In this document: positions 2,532 to 60,984 of the stretch, one piece after another | How positions within the stretch are numbered: position 1 is the stretch's first letter | Layout: each line of letters starts with the position of its first letter | IMG/VR virus record: IMGVR_UViG_3300046710_000057 | Span: 22,339-86,338 of that record | Length of the DNA: 64,000 nucleotides | Source of the DNA: a virus | Direction: 5' to 3' (one strand) | Made by a program: the position numbers and the translations under genes | Notes under the pieces: model-generated | The model's database searches: none | Told to the model about the DNA's origin: nothing | The model's input: the letters and a program-made list of their open reading frames with translations, nothing else

Positions 2532-2756
2532 TTATGCTTTGAGCAGAGCAACGACAACATCATAAGCCTCTGGTGTGTGTACCCATCCACACTCGGAACA
2601 GTCCTTTACACCTGCTTCAGTGAACTTAGGTGTGCCAGGACAGGTCAACAAAGGATACAACGGACAATAGCAAAACAGACAGTTGATTTCCTTCTCTGTG
2701 TGACAAGGATAGTATTGACAATCGGTGTTGGAAAACCACTTATAGCTGTTTTGCAT
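2532..2756 (-). CDS. Cysteine-rich small domain protein (zf-like family)
   Basis: CQYYPCH...NCLFCYCPLYP...DCSECGWVH pattern. Confidence 0.8.
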   Translation of the reverse strand: MQNSYKWFSNTDCQYYPCHTEKEINCLFCYCPLYPLLTCPGTPKFTEAGVKDCSECGWVHTPEAYDVVVALLKA

Positions 2757-5668
2757 TATGACAACATAGACGCAGGCATCAGCCGGTCACTCTTCTCCAT
2801 GTCGATCTGCAACTTCGGTCGCTCACTTGCGTTCCGAGGCGGCAGTTTTCGCGCTTTGACTGCGACGGCTATACCTTCTTTGATGTCTCTCTTGAAGTAG
2901 CCCCAAGCACCGGCCCATACAAGGACATCAATACTCTCCTCAAAGTTGCTGATGGTTATGAATGCCATCTTACCGTTGCTTGCGGTATGCTCATAGATAC
3001 GGTCTACATAACCCAGCATTCGATACTGATGGTCAGGCGTGTAGTCGCCTTCGTCTAATTGCTGGATTACCTCGGCTACATCAAGCAGATTGTATGATTG
3101 TTTCAAGTACTCATACTTCTGTAGCGGAGGATTGATCAAGAACTCCTCTAAACGCTCCAGTTGATCGCCATTGGCTAATCGCTTTTGGAAATCAGACAGA
3201 AGCGTGATCTCGTATATGTTGATGTAGTCAGTGTTACCGCTCTTCTTGGCTTTGATGAGCACTGGCGCTTCCTCGGTAAGTTCTTCGTTGAAGAAGTGCT
3301 TGTAACGCTCGTACGCTTCTGGGTCAAAGAACCCTTGAATGAAGTCAGTGCCGTCGTCCAAGTTCATCTTAGCGTTGCCGTGCCACTCTTCCTCTTCACT
3401 GTCAACGTCACCAGTCTTACGACCTTTATCTTTGTAACCATGTTCGATACCATACGCCTGTCCCTTCAGAATGAAGAATCCAGGCTCTCCATCAGTTCCA
3501 AGGTCGCGAATATCGGTGATCTTGAAGTTACGCTCGACAGCTTCGTAAACATCTCCGTAGAAAGTCAACAGGCTCTTCTTAGGAGGAACCTGGAGCACTG
3601 TCATTTGCATTTCGATATATTCGCGCTCTCCCCAAGTAGATTCGCCTCTAGCCTCTTCGAGTGCCTCTAATGACGCCATTGCTTTCGGATACTTCAGTAT
3701 CGACTCCAGGTGCTCCAAAAGTGGCTTTGAGTTAGGGAACATTGGCTCGAATGCACCGGCCTTAACCAAGGCTCTGATTACATTACTGTTGACTTTGCGC
3801 CTGGTAATCCGTGTGAGGAAATCATTCCAGTCTGTGTAAGGCTGCTTAGAGATCAACTCTTTGGCTGCTTCAGGACCAATACCTTTGATCGACTGAAAGC
3901 CTACACGCATTCCATTAGGCTCAATCCTAAAGTCGATGTTGCTCCGGTTGATATGGGGCAACAAGATTTCCATTCCCATTCGACGTGATTCCTGAATGAC
4001 GTTGCGCATCTTATCAGGTTTGTCTCGGAGAGAATTGATTTCGCAAAGCAAGAACTCATTTGGATAGTAAGTCTTGAGCCAAGCCGACCTGTAAGCAAAG
4101 AAAGCATAACTGGCAGAGTGTGCGGCATTGAATGAGTAGGCTCCAAACTCTATGATTTGATCGAAGATTATCTTTGCCGCCTTCTCACTCAAGCCGTTTG
4201 TGATTGCGCCTGCGATAAACTCGACTCTAAACCCTTCCATAGTCTCTTTGCCGACAGACTTCGATATGGTTTTGCGTAACTTCTCAGTCTGTACCCAGGA
4301 CATTCCGCCCATGTAGTGAGCGATAGCCATGATCTGTTCCTGGTAGATCATCAACCCCATTGTGGCAGCAGTCGCTTTGTCATAAGCCTTGTTGATGCTT
4401 GGAATCTCACTCTTGTTCTTGCGCCTGTCTAGCCATTCTTGAAGGATTCCTGATCGCATAGGGCCAGGACGAGCGATTGCGTTTATGTCACCCAGGTCGA
4501 TAACGTTTTGTGGCACTGCACGCTTGACGAGCTTTCTGAATAGAGGAGTTTCAAACTGGAATATTCCGAGAGTATTACCTTCTTGGAAGATGTGTTTGAT
4601 AACCTCGTCGTCATCGTACTGGATGTTCTCCATCCAAACATCGAGGCGTGGTGGTTTGAACTCAACCAGCGATAGGTCTCGAAGTTCCTGACAACCTTTG
4701 CACTCGCATGTCTTGAAGTCGTGTCGCTGGTTGACCAGTTCAATCGTATCGGCCAGGACTCTGAGTGTTCGTAGTCCAAGGATGTCCAACTTGAGTAGAC
4801 CACGCTCTTCGACATCCTTCATTCCAAATCCAGCAACCTTAGTTCCGTCGCGTTTGATTGTTAAAGGAATATCGTTCACAAGTTGCCGGTCAGACACTAC
4901 AACACCTGATGGATGGACACCTTGCGCTCTGATCTGACCTTCCAGTTTGATGGCTTGCTCGACTACTTCAGGATACCGGACTTTGAACTTCTGGCAGGAA
5001 GGAATCTGATCAAATGTATCCTTGATACAGAAGTCGGCGTCTTCGTCTCCTTTGGCCCTGCTGTATATCAGTGGGGTCATCTTGTTGACCTCTGGCGGAG
5101 GAACTCGGAAGACTCGACAGACATCGCGGAAACACTGCTTCCCCTTCATCTTTGTGAACGTTGCGATGTCTGCTACACAGTCGTTGCCGTACTTATTGTT
5201 GAGGTATTCCTTTATCTCTGACCGACGAACATCCGCAAAGTCCAGGTCAATATCAGGATAGTCGATACGATTAGGGGAAATGAAACGAGCGAAAAGAAGT
5301 GGGGCCGCACCAGGACCGGCAACCATAGGATTGAGAGAAGTAATATCGAGTAGATACAGAGCCAACGACGCATTAGCACTACCTCTTGCGTTGAATGGAA
5401 TCCCATTCTTTCGTGCAAACTGACAGACATCCCAGACGATCATAACATACTTGACGAATCCCAATCGGTAGATTTCTTTGCACTCGAACGCGATTCGATC
5501 AAGATACACCTGTTCGTCTGGGATTTTGCCTGCGAACTTACGCAACCAACCATACTCTACTTTATAGAGCATAAAGTCAGTGAGTTCGTCGTAGGTACGG
5601 CGTTCTTTGTCTGACAAACCAGCAAGAAAGTCGCTGGCCGAAATAAGCTCAGTCTTCTTTTGAGACAT
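2756..5668 (-). CDS. dnaE: DNA polymerase III alpha, catalytic/finger/OB part (lacks PHP domain)
   Basis: RGSAN, PDIDLD, GVHPSGVVV, LKLDILGL, GIFQFE, YQEQIM, YSFNAAH motifs. Confidence 0.95.
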   Translation of the reverse strand: MSQKKTELISASDFLAGLSDKERRTYDELTDFMLYKVEYGWLRKFAGKIPDEQVYLDRIAFECKEIYRLGFVKYVMIVWDVCQFARKNGIPFNARGSANASLALYLLDITSLNPMVAGPGAAPLLFARFISPNRIDYPDIDLDFADVRRSEIKEYLNNKYGNDCVADIATFTKMKGKQCFRDVCRVFRVPPPEVNKMTPLIYSRAKGDEDADFCIKDTFDQIPSCQKFKVRYPEVVEQAIKLEGQIRAQGVHPSGVVVSDRQLVNDIPLTIKRDGTKVAGFGMKDVEERGLLKLDILGLRTLRVLADTIELVNQRHDFKTCECKGCQELRDLSLVEFKPPRLDVWMENIQYDDDEVIKHIFQEGNTLGIFQFETPLFRKLVKRAVPQNVIDLGDINAIARPGPMRSGILQEWLDRRKNKSEIPSINKAYDKATAATMGLMIYQEQIMAIAHYMGGMSWVQTEKLRKTISKSVGKETMEGFRVEFIAGAITNGLSEKAAKIIFDQIIEFGAYSFNAAHSASYAFFAYRSAWLKTYYPNEFLLCEINSLRDKPDKMRNVIQESRRMGMEILLPHINRSNIDFRIEPNGMRVGFQSIKGIGPEAAKELISKQPYTDWNDFLTRITRRKVNSNVIRALVKAGAFEPMFPNSKPLLEHLESILKYPKAMASLEALEEARGESTWGEREYIEMQMTVLQVPPKKSLLTFYGDVYEAVERNFKITDIRDLGTDGEPGFFILKGQAYGIEHGYKDKGRKTGDVDSEEEEWHGNAKMNLDDGTDFIQGFFDPEAYERYKHFFNEELTEEAPVLIKAKKSGNTDYINIYEITLLSDFQKRLANGDQLERLEEFLINPPLQKYEYLKQSYNLLDVAEVIQQLDEGDYTPDHQYRMLGYVDRIYEHTASNGKMAFITISNFEESIDVLVWAGAWGYFKRDIKEGIAVAVKARKLPPRNASERPKLQIDMEKSDRLMPASMLS

Positions 5669-5898: not shown

Positions 5899-6354
5899 CT
5901 ACTTGATCTTGCACTTGAACTTGATGGTGAGATTCCCACCTTCGTTGATCTGCTTGATGGATTCGCCAATGGTGAATACTATGTCAGTGTTGACTATCAT
6001 AGCTGGGATGGCTACAGCACCTACAAAAGCCGAGTTAGCTATGTAATCTACACCTGCTGCACTCATCTTGACGGCTGTAATTGTAATCGGCTTGGCGACG
6101 GTTACAGTAGGACTGGATGCTATAACATCTGGCATTTGTGCGCCATTTGCATCTTTGTATGATACTGTGACCGTGCTGACTATTGGCGGCTGTGCTGACT
6201 GCAAGTTGGTCAGAACCAACGTGAAGTCGATCACGTCTCCAGGTTTCACGTTCCCTACTGCGGAAGTCGTCAGATCAACTCTCAAGATTGACGATTGTCC
6301 GTAGGCAGAGATGGCTAGAGCAACCAAGATGATGCAAAGTAGAATCGTTCTCAT
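5899..6354 (-). CDS. Secreted Ig-like (DUF11-like) protein
   Basis: Signal peptide MRTILLCIILVALAISAYG; VKPGDVIDFTLVLTN resembles the DUF11 repeat. Confidence 0.6.
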   Translation of the reverse strand: MRTILLCIILVALAISAYGQSSILRVDLTTSAVGNVKPGDVIDFTLVLTNLQSAQPPIVSTVTVSYKDANGAQMPDVIASSPTVTVAKPITITAVKMSAAGVDYIANSAFVGAVAIPAMIVNTDIVFTIGESIKQINEGGNLTIKFKCKIK

Positions 6355-7628
6355 TGTTGTTCCTCCTTGATAATTGCCGAATCTCCAAAGACATCTTTGA
6401 GTCGGCGAATCGTTGTTTCGCAATATTCAGAACTGATGTCAACTCCAATGGAGTCTCTGCCCAATTCTTCGGCAGCAACAAGAGTGGCCCCTACGCCGTT
6501 CATAGGGTCCATTACGATACATGGTCGGATTTCGTCTGACATACACTGGCAAGTAGGCTCCCATCCAACAGTTTCGTATCCGGCAGATACACTTTTGACG
6601 CCCCTTTTAGTAGGGCGAGTGCCAGCCGTTCTGCCATCTGCGTGCTTGTAATGCCCCCTGCCTTCAGCGTTATCCTTTTCTGGGTCAGACCAATCCTTCC
6701 CAAGTAGTTTGGCATACTCTTCGGTTGGCTTAACCACTCTGCGATATGGAGCACCGCAGGAAGCGCAAGCGCCAAACTCGGAGGTGGCTGCTTTGATGCA
6801 AGTATCAGGCAGTTTGATTGGGAAGGTGGCGTAGTGTTTGTACTTTCCACTGATTCGTTCGATGGGGATAAACCAGACGCTTCGGAGTTGTCTTGTTCCA
6901 TCGTAGACTTTGTATTCTGCTGGTCTTGCATTGACCTTCTCCTGATCATGACGTTCTGCCGAACCTTTGGCTGCGCGAGTGCCAGCAGGGAACGTTCCCA
7001 CCTCTTTGACGGCATACTTATCATAGTAGAACTTTGTGTTCTTTGCAAACACGTAGACATACTCATACGATCTGTTTGTTCGCTTGTTGGCTGACGACGG
7101 CATAACCGAGCCAGGATTCTGAAACAGTATCTTAGCCTTCTTGCCTTCAGCGTCGTAAGTGTCCATCATCTTCTCGTTGTAAGACGCACCCTTGGCCCAA
7201 ACGATCTTGTCGGCCACTACCCAGCCGTCTTCTTCGAGAGCAAGTGCAAGGCGCTCAGGAATCATTCTGAGCCTACCGTTCTTGTGACAGTCACCGATGT
7301 TGTACCAGATAGTGCCATCGTCACGAAGGACTTTGCCCATCTTATGAAAGACGATAAGCGAGTTCTGGATGTAGCGATCTACAGTCTTCTCATTGCCGAG
7401 AACGCCATACCAGGAACCACAACCTCCGCAGAATTGTTCCCCTTCTTTGTTCGTCTTCATTGGGAACTTACTATGTTCACAATCAGGCCAGTAACCCCAG
7501 TACGAAGGAGCAATGCCATAGTCTCTCATATCGTGGTAAGGTGGGCTAGTGACAATGCACTGGGCTATTCCTTGGTATTCTGGTCGCTCACACACGTCGA
7601 TCAGATCACCGGTTACAACGTGAATCAT
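6351..7628 (-). CDS. Site-specific DNA methyltransferase (N4-C/N6-A, beta-class order)
   Basis: Catalytic TSPPY N-terminal, HYATFP, SAM-binding VMDPMNGVGAT C-terminal; Cys-rich inserts; ATGA coupling with the upstream gene. Confidence 0.9.
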   Translation of the reverse strand: MIHVVTGDLIDVCERPEYQGIAQCIVTSPPYHDMRDYGIAPSYWGYWPDCEHSKFPMKTNKEGEQFCGGCGSWYGVLGNEKTVDRYIQNSLIVFHKMGKVLRDDGTIWYNIGDCHKNGRLRMIPERLALALEEDGWVVADKIVWAKGASYNEKMMDTYDAEGKKAKILFQNPGSVMPSSANKRTNRSYEYVYVFAKNTKFYYDKYAVKEVGTFPAGTRAAKGSAERHDQEKVNARPAEYKVYDGTRQLRSVWFIPIERISGKYKHYATFPIKLPDTCIKAATSEFGACASCGAPYRRVVKPTEEYAKLLGKDWSDPEKDNAEGRGHYKHADGRTAGTRPTKRGVKSVSAGYETVGWEPTCQCMSDEIRPCIVMDPMNGVGATLVAAEELGRDSIGVDISSEYCETTIRRLKDVFGDSAIIKEEQQ

Positions 7629-8083
7629 TTCGTATACCTCTTCTGCACTTTGCGACAATACTCGATTGCTGTTGCTACTGAACGGTAAGGATTCCCACTG
7701 CCTCTTCTTACTACGCAACCTCTGCTCATTATAGTTCGGCATCGAAAGCCTAATGGTCGCCAACGATCTAAATGACGCGAACCTCGAACGGCTCTACCGG
7801 TGTCTGCAACGATCAGATGTTCTCCGGTGTGAAGTTGAATCACAGTGCCGAGAGGATAGTGACGCCGATCTGCGGCAACAAATCCAGGTCTAACTTTGTG
7901 TCCTGAAGCTGTTATCCCCTTTGTGTTTCCACATTGTTTCTTGGTCGCTTGGTATTCAGAAATCTTGAATGTAGCACCACGAGCTACTTTGGCAAAAACG
8001 AAAGCTGCCAGCACTGCAACTCCAATCGCTACCATCCAAGCAATAGCAAACGTCCGCCAGATGCTTTGGTCTTCTTCGTACAT
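7625..8083 (-). CDS. Membrane-anchored 3D (Asp-Asp-Asp) domain peptidoglycan-active protein
   Basis: N-terminal TM helix; GITASG...VAAD...PLGT...VADTG...HLD. Confidence 0.85.
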   Translation of the reverse strand: MYEEDQSIWRTFAIAWMVAIGVAVLAAFVFAKVARGATFKISEYQATKKQCGNTKGITASGHKVRPGFVAADRRHYPLGTVIQLHTGEHLIVADTGRAVRGSRHLDRWRPLGFRCRTIMSRGCVVRRGSGNPYRSVATAIEYCRKVQKRYTK

Positions 8084-8096
8084 AAGGTTGTCCTCC

Positions 8097-9188
8097 TTAT
8101 TCTTCGTGACCTTCTACAACTAGCGTCTCTATACTCTCTCGTAGCTTCAGTTGCCCTCCGGCCTGTTTCCACTTACCGAATCCGTCGTATCCGTTTGATT
8201 GCGTTATGTCAAGATTCGGCAATCGTTGTGTGGCTACAGGGAAATCAAAGGTTATTTTTGCCGCGATTTCACATGTAGCGTCCAGAGCACTTCTAACAAT
8301 ATCATCAGAGATACCAGGATGGTTAGCTCCAAATGCTTCCTCCATTTCTTGCCTTGTTCGCATATAGAGGTCGCGACAAGAGAACGACCAGAGATCAGGG
8401 TCATCGAGTGCTTTACCTTGTTGAATTGCCAATAAGATGTCGTGCGTTCTTGCTTCGTTTTTGTGGATGTAGTGGCAGTCGTTCGTTGCTACCATAGGGA
8501 TGCCGGTGTCATTCGATATGTCAATGAGACCAAGGTTACACTTGCGTTGGTCATCATCGTTGATCGGCATGATCTCGATGTACAGGTTCCCCTTGAATAT
8601 CTCGTCCAGCTTGCTGGCTCGGTCGAGAGCCAAATCGTAGTTGTCGTCTTTGAGAGGTCGTGACAGAATGCCACCAGAGCACGCTGTCATTGCTATCAGC
8701 CCCTCATGATGCTTCTCCAGGGCTACCCAGTCAGTACGTCCAATCATACGACCGTAGCCGCCTTCAATAGCTCCAATCAGATGAGCGTCGGCTATAATGG
8801 ACATCAGATTGTGATAGCCGGTCTCGTTTGCTACGAGCAACGTTATGTGGTCTCGCTTCTTACGCAAGCTGTTTTCGGCTTTGATCTGTTCCTTGATACC
8901 TGCGTGCTCCGAAGGTTCGTGGTCAAGTAAAGTTCGATCAATTTCGTCTTTTGAAATTGGCTTGACAAGACAATCATCAACGAAATACATCTCACATCCG
9001 ATGATCGGCTTGATGTCTGCCGCCTTGCAAAGATTGTAGAATTGGTTGCAACCACTGGCGGTTGCATGATCTGTCAACGCCAGAGCCTCAAACCCAAGTT
9101 CCTTAGCTCGTGCTACTATCTTGGGTAACAGACCGAAGCCGTCGAGTACACTAAACTCTGTGTGGACATGTAGGTGACAGAAGTTCAT
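8097..9188 (-). CDS. dnaE: DNA polymerase III alpha N-terminal PHP domain as a separate gene
   Basis: HLHVHTEFSVLDG, ALTDH, IIGCE, TACSGG, ATNDCHY. Confidence 0.95.
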   Translation of the reverse strand: MNFCHLHVHTEFSVLDGFGLLPKIVARAKELGFEALALTDHATASGCNQFYNLCKAADIKPIIGCEMYFVDDCLVKPISKDEIDRTLLDHEPSEHAGIKEQIKAENSLRKKRDHITLLVANETGYHNLMSIIADAHLIGAIEGGYGRMIGRTDWVALEKHHEGLIAMTACSGGILSRPLKDDNYDLALDRASKLDEIFKGNLYIEIMPINDDDQRKCNLGLIDISNDTGIPMVATNDCHYIHKNEARTHDILLAIQQGKALDDPDLWSFSCRDLYMRTRQEMEEAFGANHPGISDDIVRSALDATCEIAAKITFDFPVATQRLPNLDITQSNGYDGFGKWKQAGGQLKLRESIETLVVEGHEE

Positions 9189-17322: not shown

Positions 17323-17539
17323 GCTCCTTCTTGTAGTGTGCTTTAGCGAACTCTAATGCAGAAGCATCGTCTACAACTGTTTCATCACCGACAAAATTGG
17401 CCGCACAGTAGACACACGATTTCCGATAACAGTAACCGTAACCACGTTCGTCTCCATGACAACGATAATATGTGCCACAATCTTGAACGACGGCTCTAAA
17501 ACGTTTACGGCAAGGTGGGAGACTGTCAAATAGGCTCAT
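17303..17539 (-). CDS. Hypothetical Cys-rich protein
   Basis: 78-aa ORF coupled to fabG. Confidence 0.55.
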   Translation of the reverse strand: MSLFDSLPPCRKRFRAVVQDCGTYYRCHGDERGYGYCYRKSCVYCAANFVGDETVVDDASALEFAKAHYKKEHEDAQS

Positions 17540-18303
17540 AGACTTGTACCCCCATCAATCACGAACGTCTGACCAGTGATAAAGTCGGCATCTGGCGAGC
17601 ATAGATAGTCTACCATTGCAGCAACTTCTTCCGGCTTGCCGAGTCTACCCATTGGGATAGTCTCTTTCCAATCAGAATCGGCGACTGTACCCTCGAATCG
17701 TTTCTGGATATTCTGGATTGGCGGAGTGTCGATCAGACCAGGAGCGATAGCGTTGACCTTTATGCCATAGTGCATTAGTTCCACTGCCATACTTCGAGTG
17801 AAACCTATGATACCGGCCTTCGTTGCAGCATACACAGCCTGTCCTATATAGCCGCGCAGCCCACTTATACTAGAGACATTGATGATGCGTCCGCTTCGCT
17901 GCCTCATCATTTGCTTGGCTACAAACTTAGTCATGAAGATCAAGCTAGTGAGGTTAATGTTAATGAAATCGTTGATCTGATTATCAGAGGTCCGAACCAG
18001 CAGACTCTCTTGCATAACGCCAGCGTTGTTGACCAGAATGTCAATTTTCTTGTATGTGGCTATGATCTCATCAATGTCTGTTTCAAGATGATTGCGGTCT
18101 GTGATGTCACGTCTAATGACGCGCAACTTCAAACTAGACTGCGTACACTGATCAACGGCAGTCTCCCACAGTTTGTTCATCGACTCTTCGGTCCTGGTCA
18201 GAACGATGACGTTTGCTCCGTGTTCAAGAAATCGTAATGTGATTGCTGTTCCAATGCCGCCTGCGCCTGTTACCACTACAGTCGAGTTGTCATACCAGTT
18301 CAT
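17536..18303 (-). CDS. fabG: 3-oxoacyl-ACP reductase (SDR)
   Basis: TGAGGIG, LVNNAG, NVSS, YAATK, NAIAPG, IPMGRLG..EEVA, FITGQ..VIDGG. Confidence 0.85.
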   Translation of the reverse strand: MNWYDNSTVVVTGAGGIGTAITLRFLEHGANVIVLTRTEESMNKLWETAVDQCTQSSLKLRVIRRDITDRNHLETDIDEIIATYKKIDILVNNAGVMQESLLVRTSDNQINDFININLTSLIFMTKFVAKQMMRQRSGRIINVSSISGLRGYIGQAVYAATKAGIIGFTRSMAVELMHYGIKVNAIAPGLIDTPPIQNIQKRFEGTVADSDWKETIPMGRLGKPEEVAAMVDYLCSPDADFITGQTFVIDGGTSL

Positions 18304-18410
18304 TATGTAACACTCCAAATCAACACACCGACAGCAACCAAAATTGCACACCCTGCAATCTTGAGAAATGTATCAAACCACTCCGTAGGTTCGCCCCCTG
18401 ACCATTCCAT

Positions 18411-32363: not shown

Positions 32364-33314
32364 TGACCTCTCTCCTTTCTATACGCGATATATGACTTCT
32401 TGATGCACAATCCACAACACTTACCTGATTTCGGACTGTCCAACTCGATTGATTCTGTCATCTTCTCAGTAGGTGCTCCACACCTGGTTACAGTGTCATC
32501 ATCATCGTTAGGGCGATGGAAGAAATAGTACATACCATTCGGTCCACGTCCAGGTTTCTTTACCCAGATTGCCACTATATTCTCCTAACTACACCCTTTA
32601 CCACTACCTACTATTATTGTCCGGTTTGATCTTGGGTATGTGTAGTTTCATCACGGCGAGCAAGCTATCGTGTCATGAACAGTAGTCCGACGCCCATACA
32701 GGACACGCCTAATCCCATAATCGTTCCGGCCAATGTTGGACTAGCGACGCACCAGATCGCTCCACCCATGCACACCAACATAAAGACTGCTTGGATTGCT
32801 TTCATGGTTCACTCCTTCTTGGTAGCCGAGATATGCCAATCGTGTTCACCACAACTTGACGGACACGGTGACTTGTAACCAGCTAAGCACTCCGCACTAG
32901 GGCTGTAGCAAGGAAACAGGTCTGATAACTCACAGGCACAATCTGCATCCTCGTTGAATAATCCGTCGTAACCTTGTTCTTTCAAGGCATTTTTCACGAC
33001 ATCTTTCAGCGACAACTTCTTCATTGACAATGCCTCTCCATTGCTGCTTGCAGCTTGATCTCGAACTCTTCGTGCGGTATCCGTAGTTTCTTGTCACCAC
33101 TGAGCAGATTCATATGTCCGCCAGTGAGTGACCCCCAGATATTCTGGGACATCACAAACCCATCCTCAACATCACGATACGCAATGATCGTCTGATAGCT
33201 GTAGAACAGGGTTATCACTTCCGGTATGGTCACTTTCAACGTGTCCAAATTGCCGTAGTGCTTCGTCTTGTGTGGAGTTCCGTATGATTCCACTCTTGGT
33301 AGCTCTCTGAGCAT
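32360..33314 (-). other. Small hypothetical CDSs (32360-32575, 32809-33030, 33021-33314)
   Basis: Co-oriented ORFs with RBS, Cys-rich. Confidence 0.55.
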
Positions 33315-33570
33315 CTCTGAGAGTCCTCCTTTGCTTTCGCTCGTGAATCTCACGCGCCAATTCACCGACAAGGTGATGGGGAGAGTAGTGATTTTCAGCC
33401 TCACTCAAGTCGATATTGAACACAGATTCGAGTTCCAGAATGATCTCGTAAATCGCTTTGTCGTCGTGACAATTGACTTCGCAAAACATTGTGTCAGGTT
33501 TGATCTTCTCAATTGACACTCTCATCTGTCGGCTGATAATCAGCGCAACCTGCTCGAAAGTACTCTGCAT
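33172..33570 (-). CDS. ACP-like protein lacking the phosphopantetheine Ser (Ser to Asp)
   Basis: AGGAGA RBS; MQSTFEQVALIISRQMRV...HDDKAIYEIILELESVFNIDL aligns with ACP helices; directly downstream of fabF. Confidence 0.65.
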   Translation of the reverse strand: MQSTFEQVALIISRQMRVSIEKIKPDTMFCEVNCHDDKAIYEIILELESVFNIDLSEAENHYSPHHLVGELAREIHERKQRRTLRDAQRATKSGIIRNSTQDEALRQFGHVESDHTGSDNPVLQLSDDHCVS

Positions 33571-33598: not shown

Positions 33599-34837
33599 TT
33601 ATTTGTTTCGCCCAAATACGAGCGAGACATTGAATCCGCCGAATCCAAAACTGTTGGAAAGCACTGTATTGACTTCCCAACTCATTCCTTCATTGCAAAC
33701 GATCTTGCTTGGATTGAACTTGCTATCCAAACATTCGACGTTGATAGTCGGCGGAATATAGTTGTGTTGAATTGCTCCAATAGAGATCAGAGCTTCTATC
33801 GCGCCTGCTGCGCCTTGCATGTGACCGGTAACCGGCTTGGTCGAACTGACAAGCTGAAAGATAACTGGGCCAAACCCACTAGGAAACAACTCTTCAATTG
33901 CCCCCATTTCAGCTTCGTCGCCTTGGATAGTTCCAGTTCCATGTGCGTTGATATAATCAACGTTGATTGGTTGAATACCTGCGCTTTGCAGGGCGAGCCT
34001 CATAGCGTCGTATGCACTGTCAGCGTCAGACTGAACTACAGACATCGAGCTTGAAGCTGTGCCGTAGCCGAGGACTTCTGCATATATATACGCTCCTCGT
34101 CTTTGTGCGTGTTCCCATTCTTCTAAAACGAAGATTGTTGCTCCTTCGCCAAGAACAAAACCAGATCGGTTTTTGTCGAATACTTGATATTTGTCATCTC
34201 GTGACAACGCTCGAATTGTATCAAATCCGACATGGATAAACGGTACAATCGGATTGTCTGACCCACCGGTTACTACTACATCCAGAGACCCACTGCGAAT
34301 CATTCTGAATGCCTCTCCAATAGCATGACCACCACTGGCACAAGCTGAAGAGACCGTAAACGATGGGCCTTCAATCTTCAGGTCCATTGATACAGAGGCA
34401 GCAATCATACCTTGAGAGCCATTGTTGAAGTGGGAGTCCACTCGACCGGTTGACACAAATCGGTCATAGTGTTTGAATGCTATTTCCATAGCGCCCATAC
34501 TTGAACCAATCACTACGCCAACACGATGAAGATTGATGTAAGCATCTGGGCGGTTGTCCGGCGTACAACTATCTTTCCAAGCGTTACGTGCAGCGATCAT
34601 AGCATACAACGACACTTTATCTTGTGATGTTCGTTGTTTGATTGGAATATCGTCCAGAAACGACAAATCCTTGATCTCTGCTGCAATTTGCGCGTGACAA
34701 GTTGTAGCGTCAAACCTTGTGATTGGTCCAACTCCAGACTTTCCTTCGCTGACTGCCTTCCATACCTCTTCAGGGGTGTTGCCAACCGGACTGACTACGC
34801 CGATACCAGTGACGGCAACTCGTTTGTTTACGAACAT
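33599..34837 (-). CDS. fabF: 3-oxoacyl-ACP synthase II
   Basis: RVAVTGIG, SACASG (Cys), NAHGTGT (His), K..TGH..GAAG (His), SNSFGFGG. Confidence 0.95.
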   Translation of the reverse strand: MFVNKRVAVTGIGVVSPVGNTPEEVWKAVSEGKSGVGPITRFDATTCHAQIAAEIKDLSFLDDIPIKQRTSQDKVSLYAMIAARNAWKDSCTPDNRPDAYINLHRVGVVIGSSMGAMEIAFKHYDRFVSTGRVDSHFNNGSQGMIAASVSMDLKIEGPSFTVSSACASGGHAIGEAFRMIRSGSLDVVVTGGSDNPIVPFIHVGFDTIRALSRDDKYQVFDKNRSGFVLGEGATIFVLEEWEHAQRRGAYIYAEVLGYGTASSSMSVVQSDADSAYDAMRLALQSAGIQPINVDYINAHGTGTIQGDEAEMGAIEELFPSGFGPVIFQLVSSTKPVTGHMQGAAGAIEALISIGAIQHNYIPPTINVECLDSKFNPSKIVCNEGMSWEVNTVLSNSFGFGGFNVSLVFGRNK

Positions 34838-51671: not shown

Positions 51672-52140
51672 CTCAATATACTCCAGTCCGTATTCGTTGA
51701 ATCTTACCCGCTTGCTTGATACATTCCCTGTGGAGTAGTAGACAATTCAGTGGTCAACCGCTAGGAGTATCGGCCCTAGCTTTCGAGCTTTATAAGGTTC
51801 GGTCCCTCTGTTCAGCCTACTATCTGTTATCCACTCATCGCTCGCTCGCTTCGTCTCTCTTCTTTTCATCCATTCTTAGTATACCACACGCACGCACGCG
51901 CGAAACATTAGACTAAAACTATTTTACCAGGCACGCATCAAGCCCAGCCGTTCTATGCCCAGCCCAGCCGCGCATTCTATGCGCGAACGCTTGACACACA
52001 AACATCAAGCCCAACTGCGCGTCCACCGTCTGTCAACATCCTCGACCGTGACCTCCATATGCCCCCCTGGTTCTCTATACGAACCCACGCTTGACACGCG
52101 CCAGACCCCAGGGTGGGACACACAGCTACTTGATGTCATT

Positions 52141-54794: not shown

Positions 54795-55095
54795 GCTCTC
54801 AAAGTGGGGCGACGCTCCTCAAGCTACAGTGGTCGGAAACAAAGCTGCAAACTATGGCGGAAACCACCATCCCAGGGCTTGAAAAATCTGGTCGTGTGTC
54901 GCCCCACTTTTGGAGCTTTCCCTGATCACCAAGAGATTGACCAACACGGAACGACTCGGTGGAGACGGTTTCAGCATCCACTTGATCAGGGAACTTTTGA
55001 TAAATGTGGAGCGTAGTAAGAAATGCGTTCCTAGCGCAAGAAGCCCTCAGAGTTCACAAATACACGTCCGAGAACTACATCCTCTGAGGGCTTCT
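54795..55095 (+). ncRNA. Candidate structured RNA with three long helices upstream of the ACP-like gene
   Basis: 13-bp, 11-bp and 14-bp perfect inverted repeats. Confidence 0.45.
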
Positions 55096-55117
55096 AATTC
55101 ATTCGAGGAGTTTTAAC

Positions 55118-55354
55118 ATGGGTACGACTTTCGAGCGAGTACAAAAGGTCGTGGTCAACCGGCTGAAGGTGTCTGCTGATGAGGTCAAGGAAGCGGTGAC
55201 CTTTGAAGACCTGGGGGCTGACGAACTTGACAAGATCGACGTGGTGATCGGTATTGAGGACGAGTTCGAGATCAACATTTCCGATGACGACTGGGATGGG
55301 GTCAAGACTATTGGTGAGGCGGTCACCTTAGTCAACAAACTGGAAGGCCGATAA
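55118..55354 (+). CDS. Acyl carrier protein homologue with Ser to Glu at the phosphopantetheine site
   Basis: TFERVQKVVV..L.V...FEDLGADELD..DVVIGIEDEFEINISD; GAGGAG RBS. Confidence 0.9.
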   Translation: MGTTFERVQKVVVNRLKVSADEVKEAVTFEDLGADELDKIDVVIGIEDEFEINISDDDWDGVKTIGEAVTLVNKLEGR

Positions 55355-55747
55355 TGCTGGAACCGGCTCCTCCACATGGTCGGCTGATGAAAGACGGTGA
55401 TGTCAGGGTCAGCAGGCACTCTCATGTCGATGAAATCGACACGTTGGGGGAACGTGTACGAATTGTCGGTAGTTTTCGACATGTCCTGACGTTTTGTACG
55501 AAACCTCTACACTTATCAACATGTGTCGATGTTTCGGTACAGTTGGATAGAAACCCCTACAAGTAGCAACAAGTGTTGGGAACTCTATCCGAGACAGACG
55601 GCGTATAAAGAAGTAGCAGATACACGATTAGTGACGGACAACCGAAGAAAGACCCAACATCTCAGCAAGCCCCTGGAGTCCATAAACGACTCTGGGGGTT
55701 TTGCTGATTTTGGGAACACATCAGAATCGTGCGGCGTATAAGAAGTT

Positions 55748-56191
55748 ATGAGACGGTTTTGGTCCAAAGTCCATATTGGCGGTCCTGATGACTGCTGGGA
55801 ATGGCAGGCCAGTTGTTTCGGAGAGGGTTACGGTAGTTTTTGGTACAAACGGAAGAACGTAGGTACTCATCGAGTTGCTTACGAACTTGGAGTTGGTCCT
55901 ATTCCAGAAGGTCAACAGATTCTTCATACTTGTGATAACCGAAAATGCTGTAATCCTGCTCACTTGTTTCCTGGGACACAACTGGACAACATAAGAGATA
56001 TGGACAGCAAAAAGCGAAGAGTTGGTAACGTCAAACTGACCAACTCTCAGATTATTGAGATTCGTCAAAAGTACATTCCAAGGGTTTGTACTCAACAACA
56101 ATTGGCCGAAGAATACGGCGTGGTTCAATCGCACATTGGACGTATAGTTAGAAACGAACAAAGAGAGGAGGAAAAAACCTATGAGACTTAG
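55748..56191 (+). CDS. HNH homing endonuclease with HTH (copy 3)
   Basis: RFWSKV, CWEW, LHTCDNRKCCNPAHL. Confidence 0.9.
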   Translation: MRRFWSKVHIGGPDDCWEWQASCFGEGYGSFWYKRKNVGTHRVAYELGVGPIPEGQQILHTCDNRKCCNPAHLFPGTQLDNIRDMDSKKRRVGNVKLTNSQIIEIRQKYIPRVCTQQQLAEEYGVVQSHIGRIVRNEQREEEKTYET

Positions 56192-56691: not shown

Positions 56692-58939
56692 ATGATCAAC
56701 AGAGACATCGACATCGAAGTGTTTGGCTATATGGGTGGCGGTGGCGTCACGGTCTTCTCGTGTCTTGATGTGCAGGAGACCTTCAAATGGACCGAGGAAG
56801 CTGTCGGACTGTGTATGGAGTGTCGCAACAGATATAGAGACGGAAACTTGCCACCTTGCTGCGATTGCAGCGGACTCAACCACTCAGACGATCACAATTA
56901 CTTCGAGGAGTTTGATTGGTAGCGAGAGCGTAACTGGGGAGCTACTCAGGAACCTCCTCTTCTGAGTAGCTCCTACTTTTTGGAGGTAATGATGAGAGAT
57001 CGGTTTTTTGCAAGTTGTTCTTTCGAGAATGATTGTTGGGGTCTGGAAGCAGGACTGATATTGGACCGTTGGGATGGCACTGAACTCACTTTGCGCATCG
57101 TAATCGGTCCATTTCACTTTTCTACCGGCGTGACAATAATCAAACCGAAAGAATACTGCGAATGTGGCGACCATGACTAGAGCAGAGCACATAAAAATCG
57201 TCAAAGACGGTTTGCACAAGTTCATTGACGAAAAAATCAACGAAGACAGTAAAGTGGACGTAGACCTGAGTCAAGGGATTTGTGAAATCCTAAGAGATGG
57301 CTATGTAGAGACGAGTCGCGAACCAAACGACACATACTCACTGGTCGTCTTGGTCAATGGTGGGGCGCACAACACTGAGAGAAAGGAAGAATGATGGATA
57401 TAGACTGGGACGATTGGCATTCAGTTGCTTGCGTAGCCTTATGGCCTATAACAGCCACAATAGGTCTTTGGATGGTTATAGGTGTTACGATCTTTAGAGG
57501 TCTGGGATACCTTGCGCGATTGGTAGAACGGAAGGAAGAATGAAAGCAGTCCACTTTGAACTTGGAGCAAATCCTGACGTGAAGACTACTTGGAGCATAG
57601 GTCTCCAAGGTGGCGAAGTAACTACTGGTCACAGAGTCGTCGCTCTCTGGTTTGGTCGTCGGTATCTTGCGATGACTTGGCTTCCAGGCTGGCGATTCAG
57701 CCTTCGGCGTCGGCGACCGAGCAAAGCGATTCCTCAGTCGATTGGGGATGTCATCAACGTTGCGATAGACGATGCTGGTGGCATACATTTGACCACTGTC
57801 ATCACTGATCAGAGGATATGGGACAAGCTGGCTGTTGGCGGTCCCATTCGACGTATTACCGCAGAAGTACGGAGGAAACCTTGAAAACCAATATAACTGT
57901 AGCAATCGTTCTTGTTGTCCTAGTGGTCTTGGTTGGTGCGATCTGGTATAACGCAGCAGTGAACTGCGGACAAAAGCCTATCGTTGGCACTGTGATCGCC
58001 AAGAACATCTGTCAGCACTGGAACTACTCTCATGACCAAGTAGCCGTTCAGGTCAAGACAGGCGGCGGCTATTCTCTCTACACGATCAATGTGAAGTTTG
58101 CTCACTATGGCGCTTTGCAAGTCGGCCATACTTACAGGTTCATATTCGATCAAGGTTTCTTTGCTGATCAGAAACCAATCCAGATTGAAGAGATCACTCC
58201 TGTACCCCAAGTGCCTATGCCTCGAAACGTAAACAGTTTGGCATAAGTGCCGACATTTCGTAACAAGGGGTGATCGGATGGTCAAGCGTATTTCGGACGC
58301 TGAGAAAGAAGACGATGTGGCCTTAGAGATAGGCCGAGCGGTGATAGAAGCGATGCGCATGGCTTCTCAGGACTATGGAGGGGCAGACATTGAAATCTGT
58401 CCGACTGATGGGACTGCATTTCACGTTCTTGTGCGGCGTTGTTCGGAAGACGTGACTCGAATCGAGAATTGTCGCTTACCTGAGTCGGTATGGGGTGAAG
58501 AAGATGGCAAGGGGTAGAATTGACGAAATCGTACTGGTCCAAAAGAACTCTGCGGTAGGACCATCAGATAAACCCACTCTATGCCGACAGGTATACTGGT
58601 TTGATTTGGGCGTCGTATGTGAACGTTGCGCTGCGGCATTTGGACGTAGAGTTCTGGGACTGGCAACATTCTACGAAACCCAATGCGATTGTTGCAAAGA
58701 GACGGTGGTTTGCACTGAACGAAGAGATTACAAACGAATTGTCGTAGAGGAGTAAAATGGCACAGAAGTATATTCGCAAGTGGGGTTGTGGTGCTAATGA
58801 CTGGCACGAACTCAAGAAGAACCGAAAGACGATGACCAAGTGTGGCAGGAAGATCACCGATGGCAAGGTGATAGACGAGGAAGAGTTCAAGTCTATGCCT
58901 AACCGATACTATTGTCACCGTTGTAGGGAAACTGTGTGA
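56692..58939 (+). other. Small hypothetical CDSs (56692-56922, 56980-57180, about 57174-57394, 57540-57884, about 57881-58246, 58278-58517, 58495-58755, 58757-58939)
   Basis: Coupled plus-strand ORFs. Confidence 0.55.
56939..56972 (+). terminator. Hairpin, possible intrinsic terminator
   Basis: GAGCTACTCAG/CTGAGTAGCTC followed by ctactttt. Confidence 0.45.
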
Positions 58940-59472
58940 TGGAATACGTCTGTAGGCGAGGTTTTGGTAGGAGAAATAAACCTTGGCACGTCCTTGACGA
59001 CAATCGGTTAAAGTGTGGCGCACACATCAACAACGGTCTAATAATAGACGAAACTGAGTTTCGTATGATACCAAGGCTGTTGTGTACTCGCTGCAAACAG
59101 ACTGATGTAGTTAAGATGCGACGTGAGCAAGAAAAGCGTACCAAGGTGAAAAAGAAGAAAGGTATCAAGCCACAGCCTCTCGATCAGCGTTTTTGGAATA
59201 CAGTCAAGAAGGCTGGACCTGACGAATGTTGGGAATGGCAAGGGTGCATTACTGAAGACGGCTATGGCTGGTTCAGAATGAACAGACAACGTTCAGTCTT
59301 AGCTCATAGGTTAGCTTATGAACTGACAATTGCACTTCTTCCTCCTCCTGGTTCGCGCCATCTAATGCGTGTCCGTCATAAATGCGAGAACAAAAGATGC
59401 TGCAATCCTGCTCATCTATATTCTTCGTGGAATAGGAAGAAAGATGGAATCGTACAAACTACCTTCGCTTAA
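58936..59472 (+). CDS. Zinc-binding domain fused to HNH endonuclease (copy 4)
   Basis: C-terminal RFW..V...CWEW...AHR...RHKCENKRCCNPAHL. Confidence 0.8.
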   Translation: MMEYVCRRGFGRRNKPWHVLDDNRLKCGAHINNGLIIDETEFRMIPRLLCTRCKQTDVVKMRREQEKRTKVKKKKGIKPQPLDQRFWNTVKKAGPDECWEWQGCITEDGYGWFRMNRQRSVLAHRLAYELTIALLPPPGSRHLMRVRHKCENKRCCNPAHLYSSWNRKKDGIVQTTFA

Positions 59473-60529
59473 ACTTGGCAAACATATCGTGCCTATACCA
59501 ATTATCCTTGGCGGAATGGGTGTAGGGATAACAGATGGCTATATGGCAGGTATGGCAGCCGAGGAAAGAATTGCCGGTACGATTGCCTCGGTCGGCCTAG
59601 TCCCAAGAAATTGTCCAGGTGCTACTTACGAAATCGAGTGTAGTCATGGTCTCTACAGAGAGATTGGAGTAGCCAGACAAATCTCTCCGAAGGGTATCAT
59701 CGGCGTCAACATCATGGTGGCTCTGACCAACTATGAAGAATTGGTCAAGACTGCCATTGAAGACGACATTGACTACATCATCTCTGGAGCCGGTCTACCT
59801 CTTGCTCTGCCGAAGCTCGTTGGCGAGAGAGGCAAGGATATTGCTCTAATCCCCATCGTTTCGTCTGCTCGTGCTGCCGATCTTATCTGTAAACGTTGGT
59901 GGAGAGACGGACATCTCCCTAATGCTATCATTGTAGAAGGGGCTGCTGCTGGCGGTCACTTGGGCGTGGCGAGGGCTGAGGTGGATACCTGGGGTATGCA
60001 GACGTTAGAAGCGGTTTGTAAAGAAGTTTTGCAGATTGCTAAAGAATGGGAGTTTTCTACTGACATTCATATTCCTGTAATAGCTGCTGGAGGAATATGG
60101 GACGGCAAAGACATTGTTCAAATGTTCAATGCTGGATGCGAAGGTGTTCAGATGGCAACACGGTTCATGGCGACTTCTGAATGCCCATTGGACGGTTCTT
60201 GGAAGCAATGTCTGGTAAACTCGAAGCCGGAAGACATGCTACTTATTGACAGTCCTGTTGGTCTTCCAGGTCGAACTTTAGGCGGCAGATTTGCGAGAGA
60301 AATCCTCGCAGGTGAACATAAACCAATCAACTGTCCTTATCACTGTCTCAAAACGTGTGACCCCAATAAAGCTCAGTTCTGTATTGCTGATGCTTTAATT
60401 GCAGCTAGACATGGCGACCATAAAAACGGATTTGTGATGGCAGGAAAAAACGCTTATCGAATCAACGAGATTGTACCGATTAGGAAACTTGTTCGACAAT
60501 TGGTGCAAGAAGCTGAAACAGCATTATGA
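59447..60529 (+). CDS. FabK/FabX (nitronate monooxygenase-family) flavoprotein with a probable 4Fe-4S cluster
   Basis: GGMGVG, SGAGLP, EG..AGGHLG, AAGGI, QMATRF, C-x3-C-x3-C-x7-C. Confidence 0.85.
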   Translation, partial: ESYKLPSLKLGKHIVPIPIILGGMGVGITDGYMAGMAAEERIAGTIASVGLVPRNCPGATYEIECSHGLYREIGVARQISPKGIIGVNIMVALTNYEELVKTAIEDDIDYIISGAGLPLALPKLVGERGKDIALIPIVSSARAADLICKRWWRDGHLPNAIIVEGAAAGGHLGVARAEVDTWGMQTLEAVCKEVLQIAKEWEFSTDIHIPVIAAGGIWDGKDIVQMFNAGCEGVQMATRFMATSECPLDGSWKQCLVNSKPEDMLLIDSPVGLPGRTLGGRFAREILAGEHKPINCPYHCLKTCDPNKAQFCIADALIAARHGDHKNGFVMAGKNAYRINEIVPIRKLVRQLVQEAETAL

Positions 60530-60984
60530 CACTCGAAGAACGATTGTGGGCAAAAATCAATATAGGTGGTCCTGATGAATGTTGGGAATGGCAAGCTGGT
60601 CGTTATAAAAGTGATTATGGTCAGTTCAAGTTAAACGGTAAAGTAGTTCGTGCTCACCGAGTTGTATGGGAACTTGTCAATAAACAACTAATTCCAGAAG
60701 GGCAATGTGTTCTTCATAGTTGTGACAATCCGCCTTGTTGTAATCCTACTCATTTGTTTCTTGGGAATCACCAGGAAAATATGGACGATATGATTGCCAA
60801 AGGTAGATTCGTTCATCAACCAGGCGAACAAAACGGTAGAGCAAAACTAACTGAGTCTCAAGTTGTTGATATTCGTCAATTATGGACAACCGGCCAATAC
60901 ACGCAGCGGCAATTAGCATATATATATGGTGTATGCCAAAAACAAATCAGCAACATCATTCGCCATAAAAGATGGAGGGGGTAA
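60526..60984 (+). CDS. HNH homing endonuclease with HTH (copy 5)
   Basis: CWEWQAG, AHRV, LHSCDNPPCCNPTHL. Confidence 0.9.
   Translation: MTLEERLWAKINIGGPDECWEWQAGRYKSDYGQFKLNGKVVRAHRVVWELVNKQLIPEGQCVLHSCDNPPCCNPTHLFLGNHQENMDDMIAKGRFVHQPGEQNGRAKLTESQVVDIRQLWTTGQYTQRQLAYIYGVCQKQISNIIRHKRWRG

Follow-up and report, generated by a model that had tools for sequence, protein, structure and literature searches.

The window analysed here, 64,000 nucleotides long, is part of a 128,636-bp IMG/VR virus record (IMGVR_UViG_3300046710_000057) of a peat phage whose genome is rated 100% complete by CheckV. Its plus strand carries a block of small genes coding for zinc-ribbon mini-proteins, a NUDIX hydrolase and HNH endonucleases. 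Embedded in this block is a gene for a protein with the fold of acyl carrier proteins (ACPs) that features a glutamate, Glu36, at the position where ACPs have the serine to which phosphopantetheine is attached (Table 1). The window codes also for FabF, for FabG-like and FabK-like enzymes, and has a second ACP-like ORF next to fabF.

Table 1. Features of the Glu36 locus and of the fab-related genes of the phage, with positions counted in the window
Feature	Position	Strand	Setting or property	Basis
FabG-like short-chain dehydrogenase/ketoreductase	17536..18351	-		PF13561 (E 2.6e-62), PF08659 (KR)
Second, divergent ACP-like ORF	33172..33570	-	directly 3' of fabF; Asp at the Ser position	hhalign, 93%
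fabF (KAS II)	33599..34837	-	Cys-His-His catalytic motifs kept	PF00109/PF02801; B. subtilis FabF 4ls5 (E 1.2e-86, end-to-end alignment)
Perfect stem of 14 bp with a 29-nt loop	55039..55095	+	just 5' of the Glu36 gene	RNA fold of 55020-55125, z = -3.2
Shine-Dalgarno-like GAGGAG	55105..55110	+	7 nt 5' of the ATG	sequence reading
CDS of the Ser-less ACP-fold protein (78 aa)	55118..55354	+	stop codon included	ORF list, PF00550, phrog_5934, PDB ACPs, AF2, Foldseek
Glu36 codon GAA	55223..55225	+	phosphopantetheine-attachment Ser position, first residue of helix II	HMMER alignments to 2x2b, 2n57 and 1hy8; DSSP helix 36-50
Codons 55-62, S-D-D-D-W-D-G-V	55280..55303	+	remodelled loop II/helix III	sequence and alignment
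Terminator-like hairpin (14 pairs) followed by a T-run	55667..55711	+	3' of the Glu36 gene and the structured spacer	consensus scan
NMO-family (FabK-like) flavoprotein	59369..60529	+	4 kb 3' of the Glu36 gene, same strand	PF03060 (E 4.5e-42)

The stem upstream of the Glu36 gene is possibly a transcript boundary or a processing site. The 390-nt spacer that follows the gene (55350-55745, plus strand) folds far better than its shuffled versions (z = -3.9), has the terminator-like hairpin with its T-run at its end and may be a structured RNA instead of coding sequence; a search of the region between 51 and 57 kb against Rfam returned no family. An overlapping ORF of 70 amino acids (55354-55566) was considered as the gene of a partner protein. 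It was rejected because the region folds as a structured RNA and because the ORF has no Pfam match, is not conserved beside the orthologous gene presented below and was called by a single gene caller.

The product of the Glu36 gene matches PF00550 over residues 6-71 (29 bits against a cut-off of 20.8, E 1.3e-6) and phrog_5934, annotated as acyl carrier protein (E 5.8e-18). Solved ACPs match it at E ~5e-15, in alignments that set Glu36 exactly on the serine of the DSL motif. The AF2 model, built with 73 sequences, has a mean pLDDT of 92.4 and helices at residues 4-16, 36-50, 56-60 and 65-76, which is the four-helix ACP fold. In a Foldseek search with this model the top 50 matches were all ACPs (TM 0.81-0.93, around 0.9 overall, and rmsd 0.8-1.0 Å). 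The acidic recognition helix II is retained (D35, D38, D41, E47, D48 and E49, for the canonical D35, D38, E41, E47, E48 and E49) and the protein has a net charge of about -11, with 20 Asp/Glu and 9 Lys/Arg in 78 residues. The attachment serine of the D-S-L motif, the family criterion for a type II ACP, is missing. Judged from these comparisons, the ORF is a real gene whose product has the ACP fold and is predicted not to be phosphopantetheinylatable at the canonical site.

An earlier description made from the letters of the DNA, called here the sequence-only reading, had proposed an ACP homologue with Glu at the phosphopantetheine serine that is non-loadable at this site. The homology is borne out by PF00550, the PDB alignments, AF2 and Foldseek, and the loss of loading is what a missing serine would entail; the helix II on which ACP partners dock is kept. 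The same reading placed the GAA codon at least two changes away from any serine codon, and GAA is indeed two changes from TCA and three from AGY. It also thought a single sequencing error unlikely. Three other assemblies have a 100% identical gene, as have contigs from three more peat-metagenome runs, which shows that GAA is not an assembly or sequencing error. A second substitution, Trp59 (TGG, 55292-55294), replaces a near-invariant Ala59. Both Glu36 and Trp59 are real departures from the family since canonical cellular ACPs have the serine in 122 of 122 cases and Ala59 in 120, a baseline from a profile search with the mixed alignment A2 that was too generic and returned canonical Ser/Ala59 ACPs only.

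Only one true orthologue of the Glu36 protein was found. This sister protein, P0020, is 50% identical to it, intact and also Ser-less, with His at the Ser site. It is encoded by a 2.2-kb contig sharing nucleotide-conserved patches with positions 51742-52099 of the window, which indicates that P0020 comes from a related phage. The patches themselves (51742-51816, 51841-51887 and 52032-52099, aligned with L005:163-560) have 76-81% nucleotide identity and sit 5' of the NUDIX gene, in a stretch without long ORFs. Small RNAs or regulatory elements that have been conserved could account for them. The two proteins form a pair with an SH-aLRT support of 95 in a tree with columns 36 and 59 masked, and a second tree gave the same support. 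P0020 carries the sequence S-D-D-D-W-D-G-V too, with one Lys inserted between G61 and V62. The serine was probably lost before the two phages diverged, and the protein kept afterwards. The His of P0020 implies that this lineage can do without an acidic side chain at the site and, since site 36 is not conserved between the two proteins, nothing specific can be attributed to the carboxylate.

A metagenome scan seeded with the Glu36 protein and P0020 led to Ser-bearing ACPs that are 52-58% identical to the former and are encoded in ordinary fabG-acpP-fabF operons. Their kin in a genome scan are the AcpPs of Armatimonadota and Abditibacteriota, and another close relative, P0022, comes from an Armatimonadetes MAG. 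The identity of the Glu36 protein to eight Armatimonadota-like AcpPs amounts to 69% for helix I and 70% for the segment of DSL and helix II, but only to 34% from loop II to helix IV. Between the Glu36 protein and P0020 the segment from loop II to helix IV is the best-kept region (59%). The positions that are invariant in the cellular group and changed in both phage proteins are S36 (E/H), L42V, P55S, E57D, A59W, E60D, K61G and I62V, to which Y71 (L/C), I72V and D30E are added. From established ACP structures, we take the shared changed positions to cluster where the phosphopantetheine arm exits and the acyl chain enters.

The Glu36 protein thus appears to be host-derived and of the Armatimonadota AcpP type, an assignment drawn from 49-58% identity over ~75 residues and a poorly resolved tree. 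The Armatimonadota match points to a donor and may point to the host phylum as well, as a lead rather than a proof. The pattern of change fits what would be expected of a protein that still looks like an ACP to a partner and has acquired a new selected surface in replacement of the cofactor. The conservation pattern also points to purifying selection on the protein.

The Glu36 protein resembles the AcpPs of B. subtilis (2x2b, 1hy8) and E. coli (1l0h) in its four-helix fold (TM ~0.9, rmsd ~0.9 Å), its length, and the DLGAD-x-LD context followed by an acidic helix II, the nearest AcpPs being the operon-encoded housekeeping proteins of Armatimonadota/Abditibacteriota. It differs from them by the change of Ser36 to Glu, which would leave it with no holo or acyl-ACP form, by the changes of Ala59 to Trp and Tyr71 to Leu, and by the sequence SDDDWDGV in loop II/helix III. 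It is encoded by a phage gene that belongs to no fab operon, in a genome where no PPTase was detected. In being devoid of a prosthetic group the Glu36 protein is like apo-ACP, which inhibits the E. coli glycerol-3-phosphate acyltransferase more than holo-ACP does and can stop growth (PMC3896788, a review). The targets put forward in the sequence-only reading, FAS II enzymes, AcpS, SpoT and MukB, are guesses, and in the case of SpoT the absence of interaction with apo-ACP, given in the same review (PMC3896788), argues against it.

The ten nearest matches of the first search all keep the serine, as do 78 of 80 ACPs on IMG/VR viral contigs and, in a sample from cultured phages, 9 of 11. When 1.84 billion representatives were searched exhaustively with HMMER, the best 150 proteins contained 192 ACP domains; 27 of these domains are without Ser, and 11 of the 27 have Glu. 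E36 and W59 of the query lift look-alikes in this ranking, so that the Glu preference and the association of Glu36 with Trp59 are biased; recurrence is therefore claimed here, and not frequency. The other Ser-less ACPs have Q, Y, W, H, T, L or D at the site.

The proteins with Glu include gp059 of Salmonella phage pertopsoe (Kuttervirus; VOG3101), which reads DLGGDELD, has the Trp and is 50% identical to the Glu36 protein over 52 residues. They include also the Vibrio phage ICP1 protein QVV98860.1 (L095:1393-1734), annotated as hypothetical, which reads DLCLDELD and has W59. Like the Glu36 protein, both are ACP homologues encoded by phages that combine Glu at the Ser site with a Trp close to or at position 59, but they are longer (107 and 113 aa, respectively) due to N-terminal extensions. 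Their genes have non-lipid neighbours, and fabF, fabG and fabK were not seen in those phages here. The ICP1 record has a second ACP-like place. Ser-less ACPs with Glu are found as well in two unrelated IMG/VR phages of 199 kb and 133 kb, in P0062, whose phage-like context features RuvC and a sigma factor, and in P0072, which adjoins an integrase. A different combination is present in Vibrio phages 1.187.O, eugene 12A10 and 1.161.O and in the metagenomic P0029, from a 67.7-kb phage contig. These small ACPs have the D-(E/D)-x-W-(E/D) motif of helix III in common with the Glu36 protein but keep the DSL serine and are presumably loadable.

The tree of these proteins, computed over 68 columns, is mostly unresolved and has P0062 with P0072, both E36 and W59, as the only supported pair (93) besides the Glu36 protein and P0020. 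This second Ser-less pair stands among Ser-bearing neighbours, showing that the serine was probably lost more than once. The Kuttervirus and ICP1 proteins lie on long branches away from the Glu36 protein and do not group with it, which suggests separate origins. The question raised by the sequence-only reading, whether this copy is a lone variant among homologues that mostly retain Ser, receives a divided answer: most homologues do keep the serine, but the copy is not alone, P0020 and several independent phage lineages being Ser-less. The recurrence of Glu in several lineages, each time requiring two mutations, is suggestive in that it fits the phosphomimetic role which that reading had assigned to the residue, in a sample biased towards Glu. 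The phosphomimetic claim is nevertheless not supported, considering the His of the closest orthologue and the variety of residues in the other Ser-less ACPs, and the conservation of Asp or Glu that might have been looked for in related phages already fails in the sister.

Departures at the Ser site are not confined to phages. P0045 (L091:10001-10300; also L092 and L093) is an ACP homologue of 99 amino acids with Trp at the Ser site (DLGADWTD). It was found on 7 contigs, and its gene lies in a bacterial chromosome between mnmA and folD-nifU-nifS (Fe-S cluster assembly), which makes it cellular and not of phage origin. P0017, P0023, P0055, P0079, P0109 and P0113, all from the exhaustive HMMER search, are proteins of 150-480 amino acids with two or three tandem ACP domains, some with Ser and others with E, W, P, T or F in its place. 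In the literature, phage 'acyl carrier proteins' were encountered only as annotations, and no study of a missing serine or of their function was found.

The ORF that follows fabF aligned to the ACP profile A1 in hhalign with its residues H-D-D on A-D-S. Its single-sequence AF2 model has a pLDDT of 75 with helix II beginning at D37, and Foldseek top matches of this model are almost all ACPs, with weak E values of 0.05-0.5. No Pfam match was obtained for this ORF. The frame overlaps the next gene, whose likely ATG (33314) stands behind an AGGAGG, by ~140 nt. It is probable that the ORF codes for a second Ser-less ACP. No PPTase (PF01648), FabD, FabA/Z, second PF00550 match or loadable ACP was detected in the 128.6-kb genome, which means that the phage Fab enzymes would have to use host holo-ACP and that the phage's own ACP-like proteins are predicted not to be carriers. 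A co-fold of two copies of the phage FabF with the Glu36 protein gave a score of 0.31, just below the mark of 0.34, in a run without controls, and speaks neither for nor against binding. The phage fabF, fabG-like and fabK-like genes, the host-derived look of the Glu36 protein and its remodelled loop II/helix III are points absent from the sequence-only reading.

The reading preferred here, to which we give a probability of about 0.55, is that the Glu36 protein is a host-derived, unloadable ACP mimic that acts by protein binding via the ACP docking surface. It would most likely descend from a housekeeping AcpP of the Armatimonadota type, of which a copy was captured. The phosphopantetheine serine would then have been lost in the phage lineage, leaving Glu here and His in the sister phage. 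Beside the Ser site, the surface of loop II/helix III would have been rebuilt to the conserved S-D-D-D-W-D-G-V, with helices I and II remaining host-like. A protein with no prosthetic-group site would carry no acyl chain, and its action would thus be exerted by protein-protein binding. Its most plausible role would be that of a competitor or adaptor, during infection, at the ACP-binding proteins of the host or at the FabF/FabG/FabK-like set of the phage. We infer that it binds ACP partners, and that the effect may go in the direction of inhibition or of scaffolding. A far-reaching extension, offered as speculation, would make Ser-less ACPs widespread convergent phage effectors ('carrier-protein mimics') that occupy the sites where ACP docks on host proteins, either those of lipid synthesis or ACP-regulated ones. 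One or both mimics of this phage, together with the FabF/FabG/FabK-like enzymes, would take over the host fatty-acid flux or re-route it, the SDDDWDG/Trp59 surface replacing the phosphopantetheine arm.

The Glu36 protein could alternatively be a non-catalytic subunit or regulator of a FabF-FabG-FabK-like module of the phage, working as a scaffold, an activator or a specificity factor while host holo-ACP carries the substrates, and not as a decoy for the host. The phage has a FabF that is apparently active, along with a FabG-like reductase and an NMO/FabK-like enzyme, but no loadable ACP, and the second probable Ser-less ACP is found directly 3' of fabF, as such a module would have it. The Glu36 gene, however, is 20 kb away from fabF among small early-type genes, and the Ser-less ACPs of Kuttervirus, ICP1 and the P0062 contig have no adjoining fab genes, so that this alternative is possible but doubtful. 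It is improbable that the gene is what remains of a captured host acpP that has lost its function and is decaying, with a frame still open by chance. Such a relic would agree with the serine being kept by most viral and all sampled canonical cellular homologues, and the copies of this phage, all identical, carry no information on selection; a look for RNA data on the gene turned up none. Against it stand the intact frame, the strong RBS and a model with pLDDT 92, and the sister protein, which at 50% identity is intact and Ser-less. Both proteins keep a shared derived motif of eight residues, which is not expected of a neutral relic. Ser-less ACPs recur, moreover, in unrelated phages, well-studied ones included.

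The net charge and the location among small early-type genes and HNH endonucleases would suit an acidic decoy of another kind, for instance a nucleic-acid mimic or an anti-defence protein that uses the ACP fold as scaffold only. All ACPs are equally acidic, though, and what is conserved is the ACP docking helix and the surroundings of the prosthetic-group site instead of a DNA-like array of charges, which renders this explanation quite improbable. Still more remote is a protein that remains a carrier, with its cargo on another serine such as S55 or bound as ester or amide to the Glu36 carboxylate. S55 is a derived residue common to P0020, and by analogy amino-group carrier proteins might provide a precedent as they use a Glu. 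The DDDWDG sequence also loosely recalls the acidic EDWGE tail of LysW, a weak likeness. What PPTases recognise is the DSL context where helix II begins, and the exchange of Glu for His in the sister shows that the carboxylate is not conserved; both speak against a carrier.

ACP is among the most connected bacterial proteins, with roles in fatty-acid, lipid A, phospholipid, biotin, lipoate and quorum-signal synthesis and with regulatory partners. An unloadable phage protein that presents an ACP docking face would offer a simple means of jamming this hub or redirecting it. In databases such genes carry the label 'acyl carrier protein' and rank among the auxiliary metabolic genes that boost lipid synthesis, a label that is probably wrong for the Ser-less copies. 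The new elements brought by the present analysis are a probable cellular donor lineage, a conserved rebuilt surface by the lost serine, a sister protein with a non-acidic residue at the site, and the presence, in the same phage, of fabF, fabG and fabK-like genes and of a second ACP-like gene without Ser. The look-alikes in tractable phages, ICP1 of Vibrio cholerae and Kuttervirus of Salmonella and E. coli, offer an entry to function, as a partner identified there would probably explain the Glu36 protein.

A megablast of 10 kb against GenBank phages gave no relatives of the phage, scans of IMG/VR with the ACP and with the DnaE-type polymerase returned none, and neither did a genome scan with the phage FabF; tblastn with the polymerase found only distant matches of ~30% identity. 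Three HNH_3 homing-type endonuclease genes are located within 5 kb (55748-56191, 58936-59472 and 60526-60984, plus strand), flanking both the ACP cassette and the FabK-like gene. Around 55753-55992, partial matches with loose ends occur in contigs from other runs, a hint that related copies of the endonuclease exist elsewhere. The DnaE-type DNA polymerase is seemingly split in two ORFs with a DNA methyltransferase gene between them (2756-5668, 6351-7763 and 8097-9188, minus strand), and both polymerase ORFs match phrog_405, at profile positions 333-1055 and 42-331.
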